A DNA stretch of 64,000 bases from IMG/VR virus record IMGVR_UViG_3300045988_150439; one strand, given 5' to 3'. The notes under the pieces were generated by a model. The model made no database searches, was not told where the DNA came from, and was given only the letters and a program-made list of their open reading frames with translations. This document shows, piece after piece, positions 217-51,496 of this stretch (position 1 is the first letter of the stretch; each line of letters begins with the position of its first letter). A program made the translations under genes and the position numbers. Source of the stretch: a virus (taxonomy: Duplodnaviria; Heunggongvirae; Uroviricota; Caudoviricetes).

Positions 217-885
217 ATGACCAAGATCTTTGTGGTTGGCGGCACAAAGGGCGGGCCTGGCAAATCCACCGTTGCCCAGCAAATTGCCGTTTGCCTGAAA
301 GTCAAAAAGAAGAAGAAGGTTTATATCACTGATATAGATATTCAGCGCACGACAACAAGCTGGTGTGAAGACCGTCGACAGAACGAAGATCTTGAGCTGA
401 TTCCTTTTGCATACGTTCAGGATGACATCATTAAGCACCTAAAATCGCTTCAGGGTAGAGCTGAGTTTGTAGTGGTAGATGCTGGTGGCTTCGACTCCGA
501 AATTCAGCGACAAGCGATGCTGATGGCTGACGTTATCATTATCCCGCTGCGTCCTAAGCGTCGTGATTTGAAATCTTTACGTGACATCGATCCTATTATC
601 GACAATGTTCGCAATGTAAACGATAAAGTGAAGGTCCGCGCGGTCATGAACCAGTGCCCGGCTTTGCCATCACAAGTGTCTCGCATTCTGGCGGCTAAAG
701 AGATTGTTGAGACGTTTGGAATCGAGTCTGCGCCAGTCAATCTATATAACCGCAACGTCTATGATGATGCGGAAGAGTCTGGTCGTTCTATCTTTGAAAT
801 GACCGGTAGCGAGCGCGACAAAAAGGCGGAAGCCGAGTTTGAAGAATTTGTAGATTATCTGTTGAGTCTGGAGGAAGAAGAATAA
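217..885 (+). CDS. parA: ParA/MinD-family partition ATPase
   Basis: Deviant Walker A near the N-terminus (VGGTKGGPGKST); 222 aa, typical of small type Ib ParA; followed immediately by a small partner gene. Confidence 0.65.
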   Translation: MTKIFVVGGTKGGPGKSTVAQQIAVCLKVKKKKKVYITDIDIQRTTTSWCEDRRQNEDLELIPFAYVQDDIIKHLKSLQGRAEFVVVDAGGFDSEIQRQAMLMADVIIIPLRPKRRDLKSLRDIDPIIDNVRNVNDKVKVRAVMNQCPALPSQVSRILAAKEIVETFGIESAPVNLYNRNVYDDAEESGRSIFEMTGSERDKKAEAEFEEFVDYLLSLEEEE

Positions 886-1244
886 TGTCCATGAAAATGG
901 GTGACCTAGCAAAGCGCAAAGAGCCTGATGCACCGGCTAAGAACACAACTCCTTTGCGCCAACCAGTCAGACCACAGGGACGCCCGACTCGTGGCAAAGA
1001 GAAAATTAAAAGCCGCACAATGTCACTGGAAGACGAATACTTCGAACTGCTGGAGATGATGAAGTTCATCCCTCGCTTCGAGAAGTTCACTCGTTCTGAC
1101 GTGATTCGAGCAGCCATTTTCCATCTGGCAGAGAAGTCACCGCAGGAAATCGAGGACATCGTGAAGCTTAACGAGGCGATCACAGCTGCCGACGTTACGA
1201 TGCGTACCGATGAAATTAAACGAGAGTTGATGAAGAAAGGTTGA
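885..1244 (+). CDS. small partition partner protein (ParG/RHH-like), putative
   Basis: 119 aa ORF whose start overlaps the parA stop (ATGA); basic N-terminus and helical C-terminus consistent with a centromere-binding partner. No motif-level proof. Confidence 0.35.
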   Translation: MSMKMGDLAKRKEPDAPAKNTTPLRQPVRPQGRPTRGKEKIKSRTMSLEDEYFELLEMMKFIPRFEKFTRSDVIRAAIFHLAEKSPQEIEDIVKLNEAITAADVTMRTDEIKRELMKKG

Positions 1245-1286
1245 TTATATTGGGCGTTTGTTACGCCCAATATATGAATTAAAGGA

Positions 1287-2990
1287 TTGATACTAATGGA
1301 ATCGATAGAATCATTTCTAAAAAATTTTCTAGTTTCAGATCATCGGGTTGCCGTCATAAAAGGAGATTGGGGCGTTGGTAAAACTCATTATTGGAATAGT
1401 TTTTATACTAAGCATTCTGAAGGATTAGATTTTAATGCATATTCGTATGTTTCTTTGTTTGGGGTTAACTCTATTGGTGATATTAAAAAAACTCTTTATC
1501 ATTGTGCCACACCAATTAATGAAAAGAAATATAAAGAACTAATTTTATCTGAAACGGATCGAACTATGATTCGTTATAGAAATGGGTTTTGGGGATGGTT
1601 GAAATACAACTCCTTGTCAAAATTTTTAATACATTTCGGAAAGAACGATTTTTTTGGGTTCAAAACAGATAACCTGCTGTCATCTCTTGAGTATAAATTT
1701 GTTAATAATTATTTGGTTTGTATTGATGATGTTGAAAGAAAAGGTAATTCGCTAGAAGTTAAAGAAATTATGGGGGTAATTGATGAATTAGCAAGAAGAA
1801 AAGGTTGCAAAGTTGTTCTAATTTTAAATGAAGATAATTTACATGATGAAACTGCAAAAAAACAGTTTTTAGAGTACAGAGAAAAAGTAATTGATGTCGA
1901 AATAAAATACGATCCTACGCCTGAGAAGAACTTACGTAAAGTTTTTTATGAAACTGATTCTGATTTTCTTTTGTTAAAAGTCTTAGCAAATGACTTAGGC
2001 ATTAAAAATATCCGTATATTAAATAAAATAAAAACATCTCTGGTTAATCTTAGGAATGAGCTAAGCTTGGCAGAGGATAAGGTTAGAGAAAGTTTTATCA
2101 ATAGATTGGTTCTGTTTTCAGTGGTTTACTATTCTGGTGTTCCAGGTGTTGATTATGCCTTGTTTAAAGAATCAATTAAAAACATACATGTATTTGATTA
2201 CATGTTAGATGATAAAAAGGATGATTCTGTATATTCATTTATTAATAGTCTTGATATTATTTATGAACGAGCGGAAATTGCTTTCGATGATGACATAGAT
2301 TTTTATCTCAAGAATGGTTATCTTTCTACTGAAAGCAATATTCGAGGTATAATAGAAGAAAAAAATAAACAATATAAAGAACACAAGGCTTTATGTGAGG
2401 TTAACAATGTTTGGGATATTTTTAGTGACTCATTCAAGGACAATGAATCTGAGTTTATTTCTAAGATAAAATGTGTAATTAACGACAATCTTTCACACAT
2501 ACCTGTTGCTCACTTCATAGGCTTGATTGATATCTTAAATAGATTGTTGATTGATTGTGATAGTTATATAGAGGCATATGCAGATGCCTTTGTTAGCCAA
2601 GATGATGCTTATACTGCTTTTCGGAATTTGTATGTAGAGATATTTGGTAACGAAAAGTTAGGTCTGCTAATTCAAAAAAAATTGATGGATAAGAAGCCTG
2701 AAGAGACTAATTTAGAGAATGTTTTATACAAAATAATTGAAGGCAAATTTAATCATAGTGACATAGCATATCTTAACAGTTTCTCTGAAGATGATTATTT
2801 AAAGTGGATATTATCCCGCAATCAGGATGCTTTGGATTTAGTGAGAAAGGGGTTGCTCAGATTCAAAAGTATGCAAGAACTAACAGAAGAACAGCAAAAA
2901 ATCACGAATAAAGCAATAGGTGCATTAACGAAACTGGCCTCTAGATCAAGTCTTAACAAACTACGTGTGAGCAGATTGCTTAATAATTAA
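1287..2990 (+). CDS. KAP-family P-loop NTPase
   Basis: Walker A GDWGVGKTHYW near the N-terminus, 567 aa, strongly AT-rich relative to neighbours; domain order matches the KAP NTPase family (PifA-like). Confidence 0.55.
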   Translation: MILMESIESFLKNFLVSDHRVAVIKGDWGVGKTHYWNSFYTKHSEGLDFNAYSYVSLFGVNSIGDIKKTLYHCATPINEKKYKELILSETDRTMIRYRNGFWGWLKYNSLSKFLIHFGKNDFFGFKTDNLLSSLEYKFVNNYLVCIDDVERKGNSLEVKEIMGVIDELARRKGCKVVLILNEDNLHDETAKKQFLEYREKVIDVEIKYDPTPEKNLRKVFYETDSDFLLLKVLANDLGIKNIRILNKIKTSLVNLRNELSLAEDKVRESFINRLVLFSVVYYSGVPGVDYALFKESIKNIHVFDYMLDDKKDDSVYSFINSLDIIYERAEIAFDDDIDFYLKNGYLSTESNIRGIIEEKNKQYKEHKALCEVNNVWDIFSDSFKDNESEFISKIKCVINDNLSHIPVAHFIGLIDILNRLLIDCDSYIEAYADAFVSQDDAYTAFRNLYVEIFGNEKLGLLIQKKLMDKKPEETNLENVLYKIIEGKFNHSDIAYLNSFSEDDYLKWILSRNQDALDLVRKGLLRFKSMQELTEEQQKITNKAIGALTKLASRSSLNKLRVSRLLNN

Positions 2991-2998
2991 GTATTCAT

Positions 2999-3053
2999 GA
3001 CCTGTTTCTGTATATAAATAATAAGTAACTTATTAAATATACGGAAGCAGGTC
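2999..3053. repeat. 55-bp nested palindrome / hairpin directly after the KAP NTPase stop
   Basis: Arms gacctgtttctgtatat / atatacggaagcaggtc flank an AT-rich loop that itself contains the perfect palindrome aataagtAacttatt; a second copy lies at 53263-53324. Confidence 0.55.
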
Positions 3054-3159
3054 TTTCAAAAGATACCCACCAGAACAACTCCCTTCCGTTTCCACTTCCA
3101 AAAACTGCCACCAATCGCTATCATCAGCTCATTGTGATAAGTAAGTAACTACCTACCAG

Positions 3160-3909
3160 GTGAGCCACATGAGCCAAATCTTTTTCGACACCATCGACAA
3201 CGACCAGTACGACTTCATGACAGAGTGGAATACCGCTGTTATGGATAAGTGGGTTGCTGAAAACATTGGTTTGTCGCGCTGCAAAGACGAGGCTGAACTC
3301 TTCGATACGAAGTGGTTTGATTACCGCGACATGCATCCTCTTATGGCCACCTGTCTGTTTACGGAGGCATACAAACGTCAGTACTCAAATATCATGCTGA
3401 CGCACGGTCGCGAACACTTTGAAACAGCTCCGTTCACCACCGGGTTAAAACGCCTGCCTTATCAGGAGTTGTCGACTGCCAATAAAACGTCGCTATGGAA
3501 AGCACGCCAGTTTGCTGACCGCTATTGCTGCTCATACGACTACTTTATCTCCACCGTTCTTTCCGCAGCTGCACGACGTCTGTGGGACAAGCTGCCTCGC
3601 CCACAGCATTTGTGGCAGCCAGAACTGATTGAGATATTTGAAGAGAAATTAGCCAGACGCGCAACAACCCGTCTGGATGACTCTCTGGTTAGCTTTAAGC
3701 ATATAGGAGACATGCAGTTCAACCCGATCCAGGAAAGCTATTTTGAGTGGATTCTGGAGCGTTTACGCACCATCCCCCGCAGCAAGCGCATACGCGCAAT
3801 TTTCTCCGCTATCTGGCTAATGGAAATCGTTCCAGAGCGCCTTATTTCCGCCCACTTTCCAGAAGAACTGGAAGAAGCACGGCGGTTTATTGATCCCCTA
3901 TCCAATTAA
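3160..3909 (+). CDS. hypothetical protein
   Basis: 249 aa ORF in the coding strand of the block; GTG at 3160 or ATG at 3169; preceded by a taagta-type palindromic motif at 3135-3158. Confidence 0.45.
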   Translation: MSHMSQIFFDTIDNDQYDFMTEWNTAVMDKWVAENIGLSRCKDEAELFDTKWFDYRDMHPLMATCLFTEAYKRQYSNIMLTHGREHFETAPFTTGLKRLPYQELSTANKTSLWKARQFADRYCCSYDYFISTVLSAAARRLWDKLPRPQHLWQPELIEIFEEKLARRATTRLDDSLVSFKHIGDMQFNPIQESYFEWILERLRTIPRSKRIRAIFSAIWLMEIVPERLISAHFPEELEEARRFIDPLSN

Positions 3910-29472: not shown

Positions 29473-31812
29473 ATGGCAAAAGGAAAATCCGCACTGGCAC
29501 TTGCTCTGAAAAAGAAAATCGGTAGCAACGACGAAATTCAGAAAGTAACTCATTGGATTGACACAGGCTTTCCTCCGTTAAACAAAGCTATTTCCGGTCG
29601 TTACGATGGCGGTTTCCCATGTGGTCGTATCGTAGAAGTATTCGGGCCACCAAGCGCGGGGAAATGTGTTACCGCAGACACCATGCTGCTGACGGAGCGT
29701 GGAATGGTAACAGTGAAAGAGTTGTTTGAGATTGAAGGGTACAAAGCGACATGCACTACTCGCGATGTAGAGCATAACGTTGGACTCATCAATGAAAATG
29801 GCGTGATAGAGAAGACCTCACACCTGACATGGAACAACCGTCGCAAATTCAAGCGTATTAAGCTGGCATCAGGCGGTTATATCGAGGCTACGTTCCGTCA
29901 CCCAATCCGTGTGGTTGACGACTTAGGTAATGTCGTCTGGCGACATGCTGAAAAAATCAGTGTAGGCGACACGATTCCTTCAATGGTTGGCACACATCAA
30001 TTCGGCGATCAGCACCTGGATGCCAATATCGCAAAACTGATGGGCTATTTAATTGCTGACGGATACGTGGCCTCTGAAAATTCAGTGAATTTTTCTAACA
30101 CAGATCCTTTCATCAAGGATGAGTACTACCGCCTCATTTCGCTGGTATCAGACAAGATGCCAGTTACGAGAAAACATAACGGCTCGGAAGACCATGTGCT
30201 GTTTAGCAAAGAGGTGCGTTCGCTGCTTTTTAAAGAATATGGTCTGGAGTATGAGAAAGCTGCTGGCAAGCAGGTTCCGTTGAGTGTGCGTCGCGCCAAT
30301 AGCGAGGCTCAAATTGCATTCCTTCGCGGCTACTTTGAGCTGGAATGCCACGTCAATGATGGTCGCTGCATTGAGGTTGTGAGCGCGAGTGGGCTGCTGC
30401 TACAGCAAATTCGCCTCATGCTCCTGAATCTGGGGATTACGTCAACTATCTCTGAAAAACACGTCGCGGGTTATGAAAATACATATTACCGGCTGTCATT
30501 CAGTGGCTCTAATTACGACCTTTTTCTGTCAACGATTGGTTTCGAATCTCCGGCACGTTTATCAGTGGCAACCAAACGGGACATTGGTTTTGACCGCACT
30601 TACTCAGGCTATGTTCCGCACATCAGCGGCTTAGTGAAATCACTCTACGAGTCGCTCACCAAGACCACCCGTGAAGACTACGCTCTGGTAGACCACGTTA
30701 TTGGCCGCGGCGATCGTGTCGGAATAGACAAACTGCGAGAAATCTATGTCTCCTTCATTGGCAGAAAGAATCGTTTTAACGAGCATCTGTTTGCACAACT
30801 GGCAGCGGTAATTGGCTCTAACTTGTTCTACGACGAAGTCGTGGCTATTGAGGAAGGTGAAGCACCAACGTTCGACGTAGCGATGCCGGAAACACACTCT
30901 TTCTGGTCTAACGGGATTATCAGCCACAACACATTCCTTGCAACAGCAGCGATGATCTCCGCACAGAAACAAGATGGTCTGGCGGTATTCCTCGATCATG
31001 AGAACAGTTTTGACGTTGGCCTGGCTGTAGCCAATGGCCTGAACGCAGATGAGGATGACGGTCAGTGGGTATACAAGCAGCCAGATACCTTCGAAGACTC
31101 TGTAGAGTTGATCGGCACAATACTTAAATTGGTTCGTGATGAAGAGCTTATCCCCGAATCAGCACCTATCTGTATCGTGGCTGACTCTCTTGCGTCTATG
31201 GTTCCGAACTCCAAAGCCGAGAAGTTCGAAAAGATGGCTGAAGGCACTGCCAAAGACAAAGATCAGCTAAACATGAACGACAATACGGCACTGGCTCGTG
31301 CGACGAGTGCGAACTTCCCTACTCTGGCTTTGTGGGCACGCAAATACAACGCCTGCATCATCTTCTTGAATCAGGTTCGCACAAAAATCGGTGTAATGTT
31401 TGGCGACCCTACTACGTCGCCAGGTGGAGATTCACCGAAGTTCTACGCTTCTGTACGTATCCGTCTTGGTGCATCGGTGATGAAGGATGGTAAAGAGAAG
31501 ATCGGCCAGGACGTAGGCGCAGAATGCATCAAAAACAAAGTTGCACCACCGTATGGCAAATGCACCTGGAAATTCTACTTCGATCCTACTCGTGGCCTCG
31601 ACGTTATCGAATCGCTCGTCGAGTACATGCTGGAAGAAGGATACCTGCCAAAGAACGCCAGCGGGCGAGTTGAAATTGGTGACAAGAAATACACCAAATC
31701 GCAGATCGTCGAGATGTATCGGGAGAAGCCATTAGCAGAAATCATTGCTGCGTTACAGACGATAGATGACCGACGAGAGAAGACATCACCAACAGAAGAA
31801 CTAGAAGATTAA
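29473..31812 (+). CDS. recA: RecA-family recombinase interrupted by an intein
   Basis: N-extein ends GRIVEVFGPPSAGK; C-extein begins TFLATAAMISAQKQ and carries ICIVADSLASM, IIFLNQVRTKIGVMFGDPTTSPGG and KFYASVRIRL, all RecA signatures. Confidence 0.8.
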   Translation: MAKGKSALALALKKKIGSNDEIQKVTHWIDTGFPPLNKAISGRYDGGFPCGRIVEVFGPPSAGKCVTADTMLLTERGMVTVKELFEIEGYKATCTTRDVEHNVGLINENGVIEKTSHLTWNNRRKFKRIKLASGGYIEATFRHPIRVVDDLGNVVWRHAEKISVGDTIPSMVGTHQFGDQHLDANIAKLMGYLIADGYVASENSVNFSNTDPFIKDEYYRLISLVSDKMPVTRKHNGSEDHVLFSKEVRSLLFKEYGLEYEKAAGKQVPLSVRRANSEAQIAFLRGYFELECHVNDGRCIEVVSASGLLLQQIRLMLLNLGITSTISEKHVAGYENTYYRLSFSGSNYDLFLSTIGFESPARLSVATKRDIGFDRTYSGYVPHISGLVKSLYESLTKTTREDYALVDHVIGRGDRVGIDKLREIYVSFIGRKNRFNEHLFAQLAAVIGSNLFYDEVVAIEEGEAPTFDVAMPETHSFWSNGIISHNTFLATAAMISAQKQDGLAVFLDHENSFDVGLAVANGLNADEDDGQWVYKQPDTFEDSVELIGTILKLVRDEELIPESAPICIVADSLASMVPNSKAEKFEKMAEGTAKDKDQLNMNDNTALARATSANFPTLALWARKYNACIIFLNQVRTKIGVMFGDPTTSPGGDSPKFYASVRIRLGASVMKDGKEKIGQDVGAECIKNKVAPPYGKCTWKFYFDPTRGLDVIESLVEYMLEEGYLPKNASGRVEIGDKKYTKSQIVEMYREKPLAEIIAALQTIDDRREKTSPTEELED
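29665..30930 (+). mobile_element. intein with LAGLIDADG homing-endonuclease domain, inserted in the RecA P-loop
   Basis: Begins with Cys (CVTADTMLL), ends SHN followed by Thr; two LAGLIDADG-type motifs (LMGYLIADGYV and FLRGYFELECHV); removing the 422 codons restores GPPSAGKT. Confidence 0.75.
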
Positions 31813-47030: not shown

Positions 47031-48134
47031 GTGTCACTCCTTTTGAATCGTGAGCATACGAACGGTCAGGTAACAAACGCATCGTATGCAAAAGTTATTG
47101 AGACGGTGCTTAAAAGCGGCGTGCAGGCTGATGATCGCACAGGCACTGGTACTTTAAGCACCTGCTACGTTCCCTCTTATTACATGCTTACTGGTGGGAC
47201 TGTGCCGCTTATTTCTGGAAAGGCGGTAAATCTTAAGCCACTGCTTGTCGAACTTGAGTGGTATCTGAAAGGCACGGGCAACATCCAATTTCTCAAGGAT
47301 AACGGCGTTAAGATTTGGGATGCATGGGCCGATGAGAATGGCGATTTGGGGCCGGTTTACGGTAAGCAGTGGCGTCGATGGGAAGATACCCGCATCGTGA
47401 GCCATAGTGAATATCTGAGCAAGATCGATACTTTCCGTGAACGCGGGTACAAAGTCGAGGGATACCTGGGTATCAGTGAAGATCGCGTAGTGCTATCCCG
47501 TGAAATCGATCAGCTACAGCGTATTGTCGATACACTGCGCACGAACCCTACCGATCGTCGCATCATGCTTAACGCATGGAACGTAGGCGAGCTTGAGGAT
47601 ATGAAACTGCCACCTTGCCACTTTGTCTTCTCTTTGTGGAGTCGTGAGCTGGATTTTGAAACCCGTTTAACGATGGCAACTGACATTGGTCTTCAACACA
47701 GTCGCCTCGGTTACGAGTCTATCTACACCAAGATGCTATACGATCTGGAGATGGACGGCAGTGTTACTGAAGCTGAACTGGATGAACTTGGAATCCCCAA
47801 ACGCATCCTCAACTCCTGCCTCGTACAGCGTAGCGTAGACACTTTTGTTGGTATGCCATTCAATATTGCTGGCTATGGCATTCTCACTCATTTTCTCGCG
47901 AAGATTACGGGTCACATGGCCGGTGCATTTGTGCATTTTGGCTTTGACGTGCATTTGTACAACAACCACATGGAAGGTGTGTGTGAGCTAATGAAACGAC
48001 AAGCTCCAGAGCATTCAGATCCGGTCGTTATTTTCCCTCATGAATGGTCAGAGTTGGATGATTTCAAATGGGACGAGGTTTTAATTCTTGGCTATGACCC
48101 TCTACCGTGGATCAAGGTTCCAGTGGCGGTGTGA
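47031..48134 (+). CDS. thyA: thymidylate synthase, with an internal insertion of roughly 50 aa
   Basis: DRTGTGTLS, IWDAWADENGDLGPVYGKQWRRW, DRRIMLNAWNVGELEDMKLPPCH, FNIAGYG and C-terminal GYDPLPWIKVPVAV closely match E. coli ThyA; GTG start. Confidence 0.85.
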   Translation: MSLLLNREHTNGQVTNASYAKVIETVLKSGVQADDRTGTGTLSTCYVPSYYMLTGGTVPLISGKAVNLKPLLVELEWYLKGTGNIQFLKDNGVKIWDAWADENGDLGPVYGKQWRRWEDTRIVSHSEYLSKIDTFRERGYKVEGYLGISEDRVVLSREIDQLQRIVDTLRTNPTDRRIMLNAWNVGELEDMKLPPCHFVFSLWSRELDFETRLTMATDIGLQHSRLGYESIYTKMLYDLEMDGSVTEAELDELGIPKRILNSCLVQRSVDTFVGMPFNIAGYGILTHFLAKITGHMAGAFVHFGFDVHLYNNHMEGVCELMKRQAPEHSDPVVIFPHEWSELDDFKWDEVLILGYDPLPWIKVPVAV

Positions 48135-48135
48135 T

Positions 48136-48549
48136 ATGGCAAGAGGTATGTATGTCTTATGCGAAATTGAAGGTGTGCTGGCAAATACCAGCCATCGTAA
48201 ATCTGTATCTGACTCGGATGCAGGCCAATTCATTGCCGGTGATGAACTCATTTTCCCCACCAGCCGTATGTTGCGTGGTTTTGCTCGCTCAGGGGCTGAA
48301 GTGGTGCTTATCAGTAGCCGCTCTGAAACTCTTGAAGCGCCCACTAAACGATGGCTGAAAGATTTTGGTGTTGATTACGACTGGCTTCATCTCGTACCGA
48401 ATAGCACCAGTTATGAGAAGCATATTAAGCGCACATTAGCGGAGCATAAAGGCGATCTGCTTATCGCTGCGCTGGTGCACGATCCTCGACTCCGTGCCGC
48501 TTTAGCTGACTCTCATCATAGACCGGTCATCTATGAGGTGAGCAAATGA
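48136..48549 (+). CDS. hypothetical protein
   Basis: 137 aa from the ATG just after the thyA stop; stop overlaps the DHFR start. Confidence 0.4.
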   Translation: MARGMYVLCEIEGVLANTSHRKSVSDSDAGQFIAGDELIFPTSRMLRGFARSGAEVVLISSRSETLEAPTKRWLKDFGVDYDWLHLVPNSTSYEKHIKRTLAEHKGDLLIAALVHDPRLRAALADSHHRPVIYEVSK

Positions 48550-49022
48550 AGATGATAGCTGCTGTTGGCCGTAACTATGAGATCGGCATAGCGAACGAAC
48601 TGCCCTGGCGTTGTTCTACCGATCTGAAGCTATTTAAGAGACTCACCAAAAACGCCACTGTCGTTATGGGGCGTAAAACGATGGAAAGTCTCAAACGCCC
48701 TCTTCCAGAGCGTCATAACCTCGTTTTGACGCGCTCTCATGGCTTTGTACCAAATGGATTCTACCCTGCTGGTGTGGATGATGTGTTGCGATTACCAGAG
48801 CCTGTGTGGGTGATTGGCGGGGAACAAATTTACTCGCTATTCATGCCGCATGTTGAAGAGATTTGGCTCTCCCACATCGGCGTTGATGTGCCAAACGCCG
48901 ATGCATTCTTCCCGGCAAGCATGATGCGTAATTTAGGCTTTGTGCCTGTTGAAACAGTTTTTACCCAACGAGCCAGCGAGGAAGAGCCTGGCTTTTCGCA
49001 GATCGTATACAGAAGGTCGTAA
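48546..49022 (+). CDS. folA: dihydrofolate reductase
   Basis: MIAAVGRNYEIGIANELPWR, VVMGRKTMESL and VWVIGGEQIY are canonical DHFR segments. Confidence 0.8.
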   Translation: MKMIAAVGRNYEIGIANELPWRCSTDLKLFKRLTKNATVVMGRKTMESLKRPLPERHNLVLTRSHGFVPNGFYPAGVDDVLRLPEPVWVIGGEQIYSLFMPHVEEIWLSHIGVDVPNADAFFPASMMRNLGFVPVETVFTQRASEEEPGFSQIVYRRS

Positions 49023-49666
49023 TGGATTACCGGATTGGGATCACTGGTGCTCAGGGCAGTGGGAAAACAACCCTGGCTAAATATATCGACAAACATTACG
49101 GAATCCCTTACGTGGATGCTGGTGTCGGAAGTTTGATGAGCCGCCTCGGTGTTCGAGTAGGTGATTCTATGCCTCTATATGAGCGGCTTCAGATTCAAAT
49201 GGAAATAGCAAAGCATATAGAGCTACTTACGCGTGGTGTTGAAGGCTTTGTTATCGATCGCACACCTGCTGATGTTATGGCCTACACGTTGGATTTGGTC
49301 GGCCATACAAATGAAGATCGGTGTATTGAGTTAGCCCTCGATATCGAAAAGTTTTGCCACAAAACTGCTATTTCAAACTTTAACGCCATTGCTGGCCTAC
49401 GCCCGGGGGTCGCTCTCTCAGAGCGAGATTACTTGCGGTCACAACGAGCATCATTAGACCGTCTGTATGTCGCTCGTATTGATGCGTTGATGTGCGGGGA
49501 ACTGACAAAAATTCACCTGCATCCGCAAAGGGGAGATCTGCAAACCTTCGTCGTTTCCAACCGGTATCGCACAGTTGAAGCAAGAGCCAGATCAGTGATG
49601 AGAATGCTAGATAACGCTGTAGAAAAGATAGAAAACCGGTTCTGTGGCCGAGTGACCGTTCATTAG
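49022..49666 (+). CDS. P-loop NTPase, putative nucleotide kinase
   Basis: Walker A GITGAQGSGKTT at the N-terminus; 214 aa; located in the nucleotide-metabolism cluster. Confidence 0.4.
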   Translation: MDYRIGITGAQGSGKTTLAKYIDKHYGIPYVDAGVGSLMSRLGVRVGDSMPLYERLQIQMEIAKHIELLTRGVEGFVIDRTPADVMAYTLDLVGHTNEDRCIELALDIEKFCHKTAISNFNAIAGLRPGVALSERDYLRSQRASLDRLYVARIDALMCGELTKIHLHPQRGDLQTFVVSNRYRTVEARARSVMRMLDNAVEKIENRFCGRVTVH

Positions 49667-49727: not shown

Positions 49728-50147
49728 ATGTTTAGTGAAATGTTGCTTGAAGATGAACTGGATCGGAAAACAACAGAGGCTTTGATTCGTGTAGCGGACG
49801 AACATTCCCGGTCGCTTATGAGCGATCGAGAGGCTCGTCTGGCTATTCGTGCCATATTCGAAACTGCGCAGGGGCTTGTTGGTACACAAGTGGGTGAAGC
49901 CATTAACATCGCCATGTCTCAGTTCAGTGAAGGCAGTAAAAAGCCTCTGTTTCCTATGCATTTGATGCTGGCTGGTGGCACGGTGCTTTATATCTCTGTT
50001 TGTCTGGATAGCAACCAAATCAATATTCTCAACACTGTGTCAGGTAAGTGGAAAGATCCGATTGTCTGTGAAACCAGTGAAGAAACTTTGAAAAAAGCGG
50101 CTCAATTTGTACGTAGCGCACTACTTAAGGGCGCTAAGAAGTTGTAA
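49728..50147 (+). CDS. hypothetical protein
   Basis: 139 aa ORF. Confidence 0.4.
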   Translation: MFSEMLLEDELDRKTTEALIRVADEHSRSLMSDREARLAIRAIFETAQGLVGTQVGEAINIAMSQFSEGSKKPLFPMHLMLAGGTVLYISVCLDSNQINILNTVSGKWKDPIVCETSEETLKKAAQFVRSALLKGAKKL

Positions 50148-50156
50148 GGAGTAGTA

Positions 50157-50951
50157 ATGGGACAACCGGTAGACATAACAGGTAAACGTTTTGGAAAGTT
50201 GGTTGCACTTAAATATTCCGGTATTTCAAACAAACAAGGGCGACTTTGGGATTGCATCTGCGATTGCGGCAACACCTGCCTGGTTAGTTACGGGAAGCTA
50301 AATCACGGGGCGACAATATCGTGTGGCTGTGTCTACAACGCACATCGCCGTAGCGTAAAGCCTCATGGTATGAGTAAAACGCCAATTTATCGTATATGGC
50401 TGGGTATGCGGGAACGATGTGAAAAACCAACCCATCACGCCTATAAGTGGTATGGCGGCCGAGGTATCAAAGTCTGCGAGCGGTGGCAAATATTTGAAAA
50501 CTTTTATGCTGACATGGGAGAGCGACCAGAGGGGATGTCTCTTGATCGCAAAGATGTGAATGGTGACTACGAACCTGAAAATTGCAGATGGGCGACTTTT
50601 GAAGAACAGGCCAATAACACGCGTTCAAACTTAATTTTGGAGCATAAGGGGGAAAAGCTGACTCTCTCACAATGGGCTAAAAGAGCCGGGATTCAGACAT
50701 CAACTCTTCACTATCGAATCAAGAAAGGGTGGCCATTAGATCGCGCGCTTAACGCCAGCGTCGACACGTATGCCAACCGAGATAGTAAGCGTCTGATCGA
50801 GTGTCGCGGCAGAACTCAGCGAATTACCGAATGGGCTAGAGAGGTTGGCTTGACTGCGACCATTATATCGCAGCGAATCTTGAGGGGGTGGGATGTTGAA
50901 GCTGCCATCTTCACACCGTCCAAACGACCAGTAAAAGGAGATAAAAAGTGA
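50157..50951 (+). CDS. free-standing homing-endonuclease-like DNA-binding protein (HNH/AP2-like), putative
   Basis: Cys/His cluster CICDCGNTCLVSYGKLNHGATISCGC, AP2-like segment YRIWLGMRERC...YKWYGGRGIKVCERW, and two repeated HTH-like modules (LSQWAKRAGI..., ITEWAREVGL...). Confidence 0.4.
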   Translation: MGQPVDITGKRFGKLVALKYSGISNKQGRLWDCICDCGNTCLVSYGKLNHGATISCGCVYNAHRRSVKPHGMSKTPIYRIWLGMRERCEKPTHHAYKWYGGRGIKVCERWQIFENFYADMGERPEGMSLDRKDVNGDYEPENCRWATFEEQANNTRSNLILEHKGEKLTLSQWAKRAGIQTSTLHYRIKKGWPLDRALNASVDTYANRDSKRLIECRGRTQRITEWAREVGLTATIISQRILRGWDVEAAIFTPSKRPVKGDKK

Positions 50952-51496
50952 TTGCTACAGGGGTGGACATCGAATCAACAGGTCTTGATTTCCTCTCAGG
51001 CCATAAAATCATTGAAATCGCAATGGTGAAGTACGAAATTGAGACACAGACAATGGTTGATAGTTTTGTAATGCGGTTCAACCCGCGTCGCAGTATCGAT
51101 CCGAAAGCGCAAGCGGTACACGGCATCAGTCTTGAAGATTTAGCCGCCGAGCCGTTACTAGCCGATCACGCTTCATCTGTCGCTTCGTATCTCTCTTCTT
51201 CCGATATTTGGATAGCCCACAACGGCGAAGCGTTCGATATTCCGTTTATTAGGCATGAGCTGAAAAGTTACGGTTTTTCGCTTCCAGACATCCCATTGAT
51301 TGACACTCTATTTTCCCTGTGGGCCACAGAAGACGGTAAACGTCCACGCCTTGAAGAGTTGGCCTTCTCTCTTGGCTTTATATACGATCATGCCAAAGCA
51401 CATAGTGCCTTATATGACACAAACTTAATGATGCAATGCTTCTTTAAGGCACGTAATAAGTACGGATTTTTTAAATTACCCTCTGAAATTGTGTAA
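50948..51496 (+). CDS. DnaQ-like 3'-5' exonuclease (DEDDh family)
   Basis: Exo I GVDIESTG, Exo II IAHNGEAFDIPF, Exo III HSALYDT; GTG start with aaggag RBS. Confidence 0.65.
   Translation: MIATGVDIESTGLDFLSGHKIIEIAMVKYEIETQTMVDSFVMRFNPRRSIDPKAQAVHGISLEDLAAEPLLADHASSVASYLSSSDIWIAHNGEAFDIPFIRHELKSYGFSLPDIPLIDTLFSLWATEDGKRPRLEELAFSLGFIYDHAKAHSALYDTNLMMQCFFKARNKYGFFKLPSEIV

Follow-up and report, generated by a model that had tools for sequence, protein, structure and literature searches.

A probable free-standing homing endonuclease gene with a PacI-like finger at the exonuclease locus of an SSU5-type phage-plasmid

We analysed a 64,000-nucleotide stretch of tailed-phage DNA (IMG/VR record IMGVR_UViG_3300045988_150439; hereafter the window) and found that an intact open reading frame (ORF) of 264 amino acids (aa) is probably a free-standing homing endonuclease gene (HEG), situated at the dnaQ-like exonuclease gene of an SSU5-type phage-plasmid and homing by PacI-type cleavage. 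The ORF shows presence/absence polymorphism at one site among close relatives and lies outside any intron or intein, as free-standing HEGs do. Together with part of the exonuclease gene it forms a sharp-edged cassette that occurs in two backbones alongside chimeric alleles, a co-conversion pattern compatible with homing. The initial annotation of this DNA had described the ORF as a homing-endonuclease-like gene and possible mobile insertion. Its free-standing state, patchy distribution, foreign flank and finger motif all agree with that description, but the product is not a canonical H-N-H enzyme.

50157..50951 (+), putative free-standing HEG, 264 aa (basis: intact ORF, PHROG match, absence from the closest relatives, dN/dS)

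The gene is inserted between the ribosome-binding site and start codon of an exonuclease gene

The window was ~99-100% identical to Escherichia phage Cyrano through position 50152, just beyond the common TAAGGAGT, and identity then fell to 0 across the whole ORF. At the empty sites of Cyrano, PhiR41_1 and SSU5, the stop codon of a 139-aa gene is followed by 9 nt and then by the start codon of the exonuclease. The 264-aa ORF is an insertion relative to the closest relatives, and it separates the start codon of the dnaQ-like exonuclease from the original ribosome-binding site (RBS) of that gene. The features at the junctions are as follows.

50146..50151 (+), Shine-Dalgarno (SD) sequence AAGGAG; junction sequences and alignments place the left edge of the insertion just 3' of it
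50935..50951 (+), replacement translation start of the exonuclease, supplied by the insert: SD AAGGAG at 50935-50940 inside the 3' end of the ORF, GTG at 50948-50950
50948-51496 (+), DnaQ/RNase_T-type 3'-5' exonuclease gene (Pfam RNase_T, 1.3e-22; PHROG 192, 'DNA polymerase exonuclease subunit')

The AAGGAG at 50146-50151 serves the exonuclease gene in relatives with an empty site and the inserted ORF in the window. The GTG start of the exonuclease (50948-50950) overlaps the TGA stop of the ORF (50949-50951). As a result of the new SD and GTG start, the exonuclease N-terminus is 3 aa shorter, reading (M)IATG in filled alleles, which carry the ORF, and MTTIVAG in empty ones. No RNA structure that would occlude the RBS was detected at the translation start of the 264-aa ORF (z = +1.0), and neither a promoter nor a terminator was found within the insertion; there is thus no sign of separate regulation.

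These features could also be read as those of a core accessory nuclease, either a terminase-associated packaging HNH enzyme (as HK97 gp74 or in GVE2) or a replication/repair factor that acts together with the exonuclease. In favour of such a role, the operon that holds the gene serves replication and nucleotide metabolism, translation of the exonuclease gene is coupled to that of the ORF, and the ORF lacks both a promoter and a terminator of its own. However, most related viable elements do without it, among them SSU5, Cyrano and PhiR41_1, which form plaques, and terminase genes do not adjoin it. Packaging HNH enzymes are fixed in position and present in every genome of their group (PMC12724721), the opposite of what was found here. 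A packaging-HNH identity was ruled out by distribution and position, and the presence/absence data effectively refute the accessory-nuclease explanation as a whole, the probability of which we put close to nil.

A sharp-edged foreign cassette in two backbones

The insertion does not end with the ORF.

50153..51336 (+), whole foreign cassette, made up of the ORF and the 5'-most ~370-389 nt of the exonuclease gene; edges drawn from mismatch coordinates and profiles of identity
51088..51317 (+), exonuclease nt ~141-370, the one part of the cassette common to all filled and chimeric-empty alleles (see below)

From 50153 to ~51336 the window showed ~96% identity to Klebsiella phage-plasmids such as GArcari-2022b. 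The exonuclease part of this tract was only ~65% identical to E. coli relatives that are otherwise 98-99% identical and that lack the ORF; downstream of the cassette the window returned to 96-100% Cyrano-like sequence. Mismatch coordinates placed the right edge at exonuclease nt 371-389 (window 51318-51336). Within the Klebsiella backbone, the filled GArcari and the empty pKA2-4 were identical up to the RBS, differed over exonuclease nt 1-378 and were identical afterwards. The same cassette with the same edges in the E. coli and Klebsiella backbones indicates that it was placed into two different backbones. Comparison of two filled Klebsiella backbones, GArcari and Kp41 (~99% identical throughout), added no further evidence of transfer.

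The E. coli and Klebsiella copies of the gene differ by 24 synonymous and 7 non-synonymous changes, and the resulting dN/dS of 0.075 points to strong purifying selection. The most divergent copy, at 83% nucleotide identity in the same context, is that of K. variicola p_AC125 (CP133154, locus L011, 1501..2296). This record is rich in indels, with 95 gaps in 1388 aligned nt, and has 27 annotated features in 77 kb; low assembly accuracy is a likelier cause than true divergence or decay of the gene copy. In one filled K. pneumoniae record of PLSDB (NZ_CP084243.1, 84157..87710), the locus match came in two parts and an 'IS5 family transposase' was annotated beneath it, indicating that an insertion sequence element landed within or beside the cluster.

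Three allele classes and the predicted cleavage site

Three allele classes were found in each of the two host genera: filled, naive-empty and chimeric-empty. A chimeric-empty allele begins with a naive exonuclease 5' end and then switches to cassette-type sequence up to the same right edge, without the ORF. The left crossover lies at nt 94-103 in E. coli pCUPF07B (locus L005, 1958..2512) and at nt 133-140 in K. pneumoniae pSZP4-9-2-109k (locus L012, 1002..1556), which marks the two as independent events. The classes were counted as follows.

Complete E. coli genomes: ~205 records with the locus; 8 filled, 29 chimeric-empty, 167 naive-empty
PLSDB, all genera: 457 records with the locus; 112 filled (105 Klebsiella, 7 Escherichia)
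PLSDB, Klebsiella query: 278 Klebsiella records; ~105 filled, ~170 in the two empty classes together

Presence/absence polymorphism in related elements had been proposed as a check in the initial annotation, and these counts (8 of ~205 and 112 of 457 filled), together with the empty Cyrano, PhiR41_1 and SSU5, bear it out; they run counter to the refuting case that the annotation had named, in which every related element would have the gene at one position with orthologous flanks. Among the 457 PLSDB records with the locus, none from Enterobacter, Salmonella or Citrobacter was filled.

HEG-less chimeric alleles are commoner in E. coli than filled ones (29 vs 8 records). All filled alleles have the full cassette, and none with a naive distal tract was seen among the filled alleles of the E. 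coli and Klebsiella collections. The asymmetry between the alleles is what would be expected if cleavage of naive alleles falls within exonuclease nt ~141-370; in that case a filled allele that retained a naive target would be cut by its own enzyme. We infer that the naive-allele counterpart of this segment is where the cleavage site should lie, which makes the exonuclease gene the probable bearer of the target. Weighing against this interpretation, plain recombination combined with selection could also yield an asymmetric allele pattern.

The same alleles bear on what the nuclease is selected for. An active enzyme could be maintained mainly for competition, by marker or superinfection exclusion, against phage-plasmids or phages with a naive exonuclease, with gene conversion as a by-product. 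All support for nuclease activity counts equally for this possibility; the carrier seems to gain from the gene, given the strong purifying selection and the stably high frequency in Klebsiella (~105/278), and phage HNH homing enzymes can cut the plating of HEG-less phages ~1000-fold (PMC12724721). Competition is, however, not exclusive of homing, as the same cleavage gives both outcomes, and the co-conversion footprints point to actual repair from the filled allele. We consider it quite unlikely that competition is the main force, although the present data do not separate the two as selective explanations.

A predicted PacI-like finger without the catalytic histidine

The predicted nuclease part of the protein is a conserved core of ~90 aa with a finger within it.

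50358..50630 (+), conserved core, predicted catalytic PacI-like His-Me-finger domain, aa 68-158
50538..50618 (+), predicted beta-beta-alpha finger, aa 128-154: beta1 SLDR, omega-loop KDVNGDYEPEN, beta2 CRWA, helix FEEQANN

The AlphaFold model had a predicted local distance difference test score of 92.7 over its full length and 90.2 for the isolated core, and the best structural match of both was the HNH restriction enzyme PacI (PDB 3m7k). In the model the finger region adopts two antiparallel beta strands with an omega-loop between them, followed by an alpha helix (DSSP: E128-131, E143-146, H148-153), the arrangement of a His-Me finger. The initial annotation had named the lack of any nuclease motif on structure prediction as evidence against its claim; structure prediction did yield one, a beta-beta-alpha-metal finger with PacI as its best match. 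Foldseek against the PDB returned nothing significant (best E 0.6, VapX, 48 residues), and the gamma-crystallin matches of a single-sequence PDB search were discarded as spurious, driven by Cys/Tyr composition. The best PDB sequence match of the family profile was I-HmuI, not significant at E=0.65; the alignment sets sLDRiD...NcRW...eqanN over VVDHKD...NLRW...INVEN, and Arg131 falls on the catalytic His75.

Conservation was counted across a sample of 80 homologues. H70 was kept in 77, D/E130 in 79, N154 in 79 (with His in the remaining one), and R131, Y138 and N142 in all 80. The catalytic His at the C-terminal end of beta1 is absent from the family, Arg131 taking that position in 80/80 homologues. 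N142 stands at the junction of omega-loop and beta2, and N154 of the helix occupies the metal-ligand position. By motif order, without superposition, D/E130, R131 and Y138 between beta1 and beta2 follow the PacI-type pattern of D-R and omega-loop Tyr. R87, Y99, G100, G103, W110, F116, R131, Y138, N142 and W145 are invariant in the core. CxxC pairs of the PacI type were not found in the 264-aa protein; its helix reads EEQANN, and its cysteines are arranged as C33xC35xC37...C56xC58, C88, C107 and C143. The near-invariant H70, C88, C107 and C143 form a candidate structural metal site, possibly replacing the CxxC sites of PacI.

An Arg at the position of I-HmuI His75 would normally hint at a dead enzyme, but PacI is a documented exception. 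The catalytic His is absent from PacI and an omega-loop Tyr takes its role (PMC5714182); the metal ligands are one Asp and one Asn (PMC4081073), and the catalytic residues have been given as 'H, DR, CxxCN', with the Tyr following DR (PMC11529989). By analogy, we propose that D130 and N154 hold the metal, that Y138 acts as base or nucleophile, that R131 replaces the His and that N142 is structural. Tyrosine-based chemistry, well motivated by the likeness to PacI, is a proposal for this family.

Putative DNA-binding modules and profile searches

The core is flanked by modules on both sides.

50157..50336 (+), N-terminal Cys-rich beta module, aa 1-60, with C33, C35, C37, C56 and C58 and beta strands at 15-23, 29-35 and 40-44
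50631..50771 (+), C-terminal repeat 1, aa 159-205 (AlphaFold2 model: E160-163, E166-169, H170-177, H181-189, H194-199)
50790..50930 (+), C-terminal repeat 2, aa 212-258, a copy of repeat 1 with the same secondary structure

The Cys cluster noticed in the initial annotation was confirmed, its five cysteines being kept in 77-78 of the 80 homologues; the N-terminal module is presumably a zinc-binding DNA-recognition module. It is duplicated in homologues P0062, P0016, P0054, P0057 and P0106, with up to 11 matched stretches in representatives. The two repeated helix-turn-helix (HTH)-like modules likewise held up. Repeat 1 (aa ~154-198) matched repeat 2 (~206-251) in BLASTP at E=2e-9, and in the model each consists of a beta-hairpin followed by three helices, consistent with HTH-like DNA-binding modules. 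Homologues have one to three or more copies, and HTH-type Pfam matches are present among them. In a 1537-aa homologue the repeat was found in 19 stretches, and the number of modules varies widely (P0123, P0134, P0258 and others).

The claimed AP2-like basic segment was not supported: AP2 (PF00847) and NUMOD models matched neither the protein nor any of the 80 homologues, and aa 58-120 are helical in the model, unlike an AP2 domain with its three-stranded sheet against a helix, and belong to the predicted nuclease core. Profile searches, which had been suggested as a check, gave a divided answer. Both PHROGs matches, phrog_374 and phrog_3377 (E 2e-79 and 1e-70), are labelled 'HNH endonuclease'. 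No Pfam HNH family (PF01844 HNH, PF13392 HNH_3 and relatives), in contrast, matched the protein at E<=0.1 or the 80 homologues at E<=0.01. The only Pfam match was PVL_ORF50 (PF07768) over aa 162-207, sub-threshold at 19.9 bits (gathering threshold 27), which recurred at E<=0.01 in 3 of the 80 homologues and reflects the C-terminal repeat only. NCBIfam gave a single sub-threshold match, BcepMu_gp16, over one helix.

The family is very large. A first search gave more than 7,700 matches, and a profile search retrieved 216,896 representative clusters at E<=0.001, part of which will match the repeated modules only, and 96,076 at E<=1e-30. Despite the more than 200,000 representative clusters retrieved by the profile, the conserved core has no Pfam model.

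Relatives in other phages, including ORFs nested in inteins

tblastn located relatives in 1190 phage records, typically beside or inside polymerase, helicase, dUTPase, MazG or exonuclease genes. In Salmonella phage vB_SenS-Ent3 (NC_024204), an intact 247-aa relative (locus L008, 2348..3091) lies within a DNA-polymerase intein (2256..3152); it is read on the same strand as the intein in another frame, and the in-frame middle of the intein has no similarity to the query. APSE-7 (LR794151) shows the same arrangement, with a 216-aa ORF (locus L009, 2483..3133) within the DNA polymerase coding sequence (457..3438). Both records annotate only the polymerase, plus, in Ent3, an intein 'encoding splicing domains'. 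Out-of-frame endonuclease ORFs in inteins and other insertions have recently been described for other nuclease families (bioRxiv 10.64898/2026.09.14.751524, PMC11855218). The intein-nested and widespread relatives provide independent support for a homing role.

The relatives also bear on whether the protein is a nuclease at all. It could be a dead, HNH-derived sequence-specific DNA binder, such as an operon regulator, carried as a 'moron', with its patchiness and the mosaic arising from ordinary homologous recombination. The replacement of the canonical general-base His by Arg in 80/80 homologues would fit, as would the absence of any Pfam nuclease match and the large share of the protein taken up by DNA-binding-type modules; His-Me fingers that have neither the His nor a Tyr substitute (Smad MH1, Enpp) are inactive binders (PMC5714182), and the one 'PacI-like' Skunavirus phage enzyme that was tested gave no detected activity. 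A pure binder, however, needs none of D/E130, N154, N142 and loop Y138, which are kept as in active PacI. Nor would it be expected that relatives, as overlapping ORFs, take the place of the endonuclease in DNA-polymerase inteins, or that, unlike an operon-specific regulator, they sit at many unrelated loci across the 1190 phage records. The same cassette in two backbones, with recurrent asymmetric chimeras alongside, also argues against a dead binder, which we regard as unlikely.

The carrying element and the gene neighbourhood

Escherichia phages Cyrano, CMS-2020a and PhiR41_1 match the region at 98-99% identity, and the region is also related to Salmonella phage SSU5. Judged by its sequence, the window is an SSU5-type phage-plasmid, and the T4-like context invoked in the initial annotation does not apply. 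The gene does lie inside the thyA-DHFR-kinase-dnaQ cluster, with neighbours as that annotation described them.

47031-48134, thymidylate synthase, upstream neighbour
between thymidylate synthase and dihydrofolate reductase (DHFR), small HAD/PNKP-phosphatase-like protein
48546-49022 (+), DHFR, ~1.1 kb upstream of the insertion
49022-49666, P-loop kinase-like protein
49728-50147, 139-aa protein of unassigned function, directly upstream of the 264-aa ORF
beyond the exonuclease gene, Dam methylase gene

The DHFR (48546..49022) shares 156 of 158 aa with the RefSeq trimethoprim-resistant DfrA51 of related E. coli phage-plasmids, and only two adjacent residues differ (VF vs AY).

The RecA intein, which had been counted as the other homing element of the window, was also recovered. 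The 779-aa RecA ORF (29473..31812, +) matched Pfam RecA (3.4e-36), Intein_splicing (2e-11) and LAGLIDADG_3 (2.4e-17). With the 264-aa ORF, the window thus contains two homing-type elements of different nuclease families; a second member of the 264-aa protein's own family was looked for in the window and not found.

Discussion

In the homing process that we favour, the Cys module and the two HTH repeats would read a long DNA site, and the core would cut or nick the HEG-less allele through a PacI-type site in which D130 and N154 hold Mg2+, Y138 serves as base or nucleophile and R131 stands in for the His. When a filled and an empty phage-plasmid meet in one cell, the break would be repaired from the filled copy, and the gene would be copied together with its flank. 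The cut would probably fall inside the exonuclease gene, at nt ~141-370 of naive alleles. Repair would then always convert the cut stretch and reach the ORF only sometimes, and partial repairs would leave chimeric alleles that lack the HEG and are probably resistant.

A bolder version of this explanation places the gene in a very large clade (~10^5 clusters at 50% identity), without a Pfam model, of His-less, tyrosine-dependent beta-beta-alpha-metal homing endonucleases of which PacI would be a domesticated offshoot and no oddity. It takes the naive, filled and 'immunised' alleles of E. coli and Klebsiella as a record of ongoing homing between co-resident plasmid-prophages, with a cut 140-370 nt inside the exonuclease gene. 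We put this forward tentatively, as a possibility that falls somewhat short of being probable.

The functional type itself is already known, since free-standing HEGs with co-conversion have long been described from T4-type phages. What is new is the identity of a 'hypothetical protein' that SSU5-type phage-plasmids encode, a detailed footprint resembling that of homing in each of two host genera, and a D-R...Y...N pattern that is invariant across the sample of a very large family without a Pfam model. The case is solid and instructive; only confirmation of the tyrosine chemistry and of a cut at a distance would make it surprising to a specialist. The related plasmid records examined label the gene 'hypothetical protein'; this label can now give way to that of a mobile endonuclease gene, and the cassette explains the mosaic 5' end of the exonuclease gene. 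Homing-type gene conversion would accordingly be among the processes that shape SSU5-type phage-plasmids, and the retrieved SSU5 and phage-plasmid literature makes no mention of homing endonucleases. Clinical E. coli and Klebsiella often carry such elements, and the gene sits ~1.1 kb from a dfrA51-like trimethoprim-resistance gene. If PacI-like tyrosine chemistry is confirmed, 'HNH endonuclease' labels in phage genomes would read differently and a large pool of long-site nucleases would be added.

Comparison with known systems

The rare-cutting restriction enzyme R.PacI, of group 20 of the His-Me enzymes, shares with the 264-aa protein a beta1 that ends in D-R and not D-H, the omega-loop Tyr, the Asn ligand of the helix and an upstream His. 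Both proteins are Cys-rich and presumably zinc-stabilised, but PacI has two CxxC/CxxC zinc sites on either side of the finger, with a CxxCN helix, which the 264-aa protein does not. For I-HmuI (PDB 1u3e; HNH_3/NUMOD type, group 2), the finger motifs align one for one (DxxD...N.RW...N); it has the same order of a nuclease finger followed by helical DNA-binding modules, and the same lifestyle in phage replication genes. I-HmuI differs in having the catalytic His75, where the family of the 264-aa protein has an invariant Arg, in being intron-encoded and in nicking one strand. HNH_3, NUMOD and AP2 Pfam models match 0 of 80 members of that family, unlike enzymes of the I-HmuI type.

The 'PacI-like' HNH genes of lactococcal Skunavirus (PMC12724721), likened here by description, are also phage-encoded, free-standing and variably present, and were assigned to PacI by remote homology (HHpred). 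They differ in being rare (2/268), in occupying one site in the morphogenesis module and in showing no detected activity. The intein of cyanobacterial dnaX and the ShiLan insertion contain out-of-frame HEG ORFs, like the Ent3 and APSE-7 relatives of the 264-aa protein. Their enzymes are of LAGLIDADG or canonical HNH type, and the window's own copy, unlike them, is free-standing and not nested.

The HEGs of T4-type phages (SegB, SegG, MobE and the trans-homing I-TevIII) are likewise intergenic and intron-less, lie between conserved nucleotide-metabolism or replication genes, and show presence/absence polymorphism among close relatives with co-conversion of flanking markers. They differ in being GIY-YIG or canonical HNH enzymes of virulent phages for which cleavage has been shown, whereas the carrier here is a temperate phage-plasmid and the enzyme a predicted His-less one of PacI type. 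Cleavage at a distance, inside a neighbouring conserved gene, as we predict for the exonuclease, would agree with what has been reported for MobE and SegB (PMC2790892, PMC2330249).
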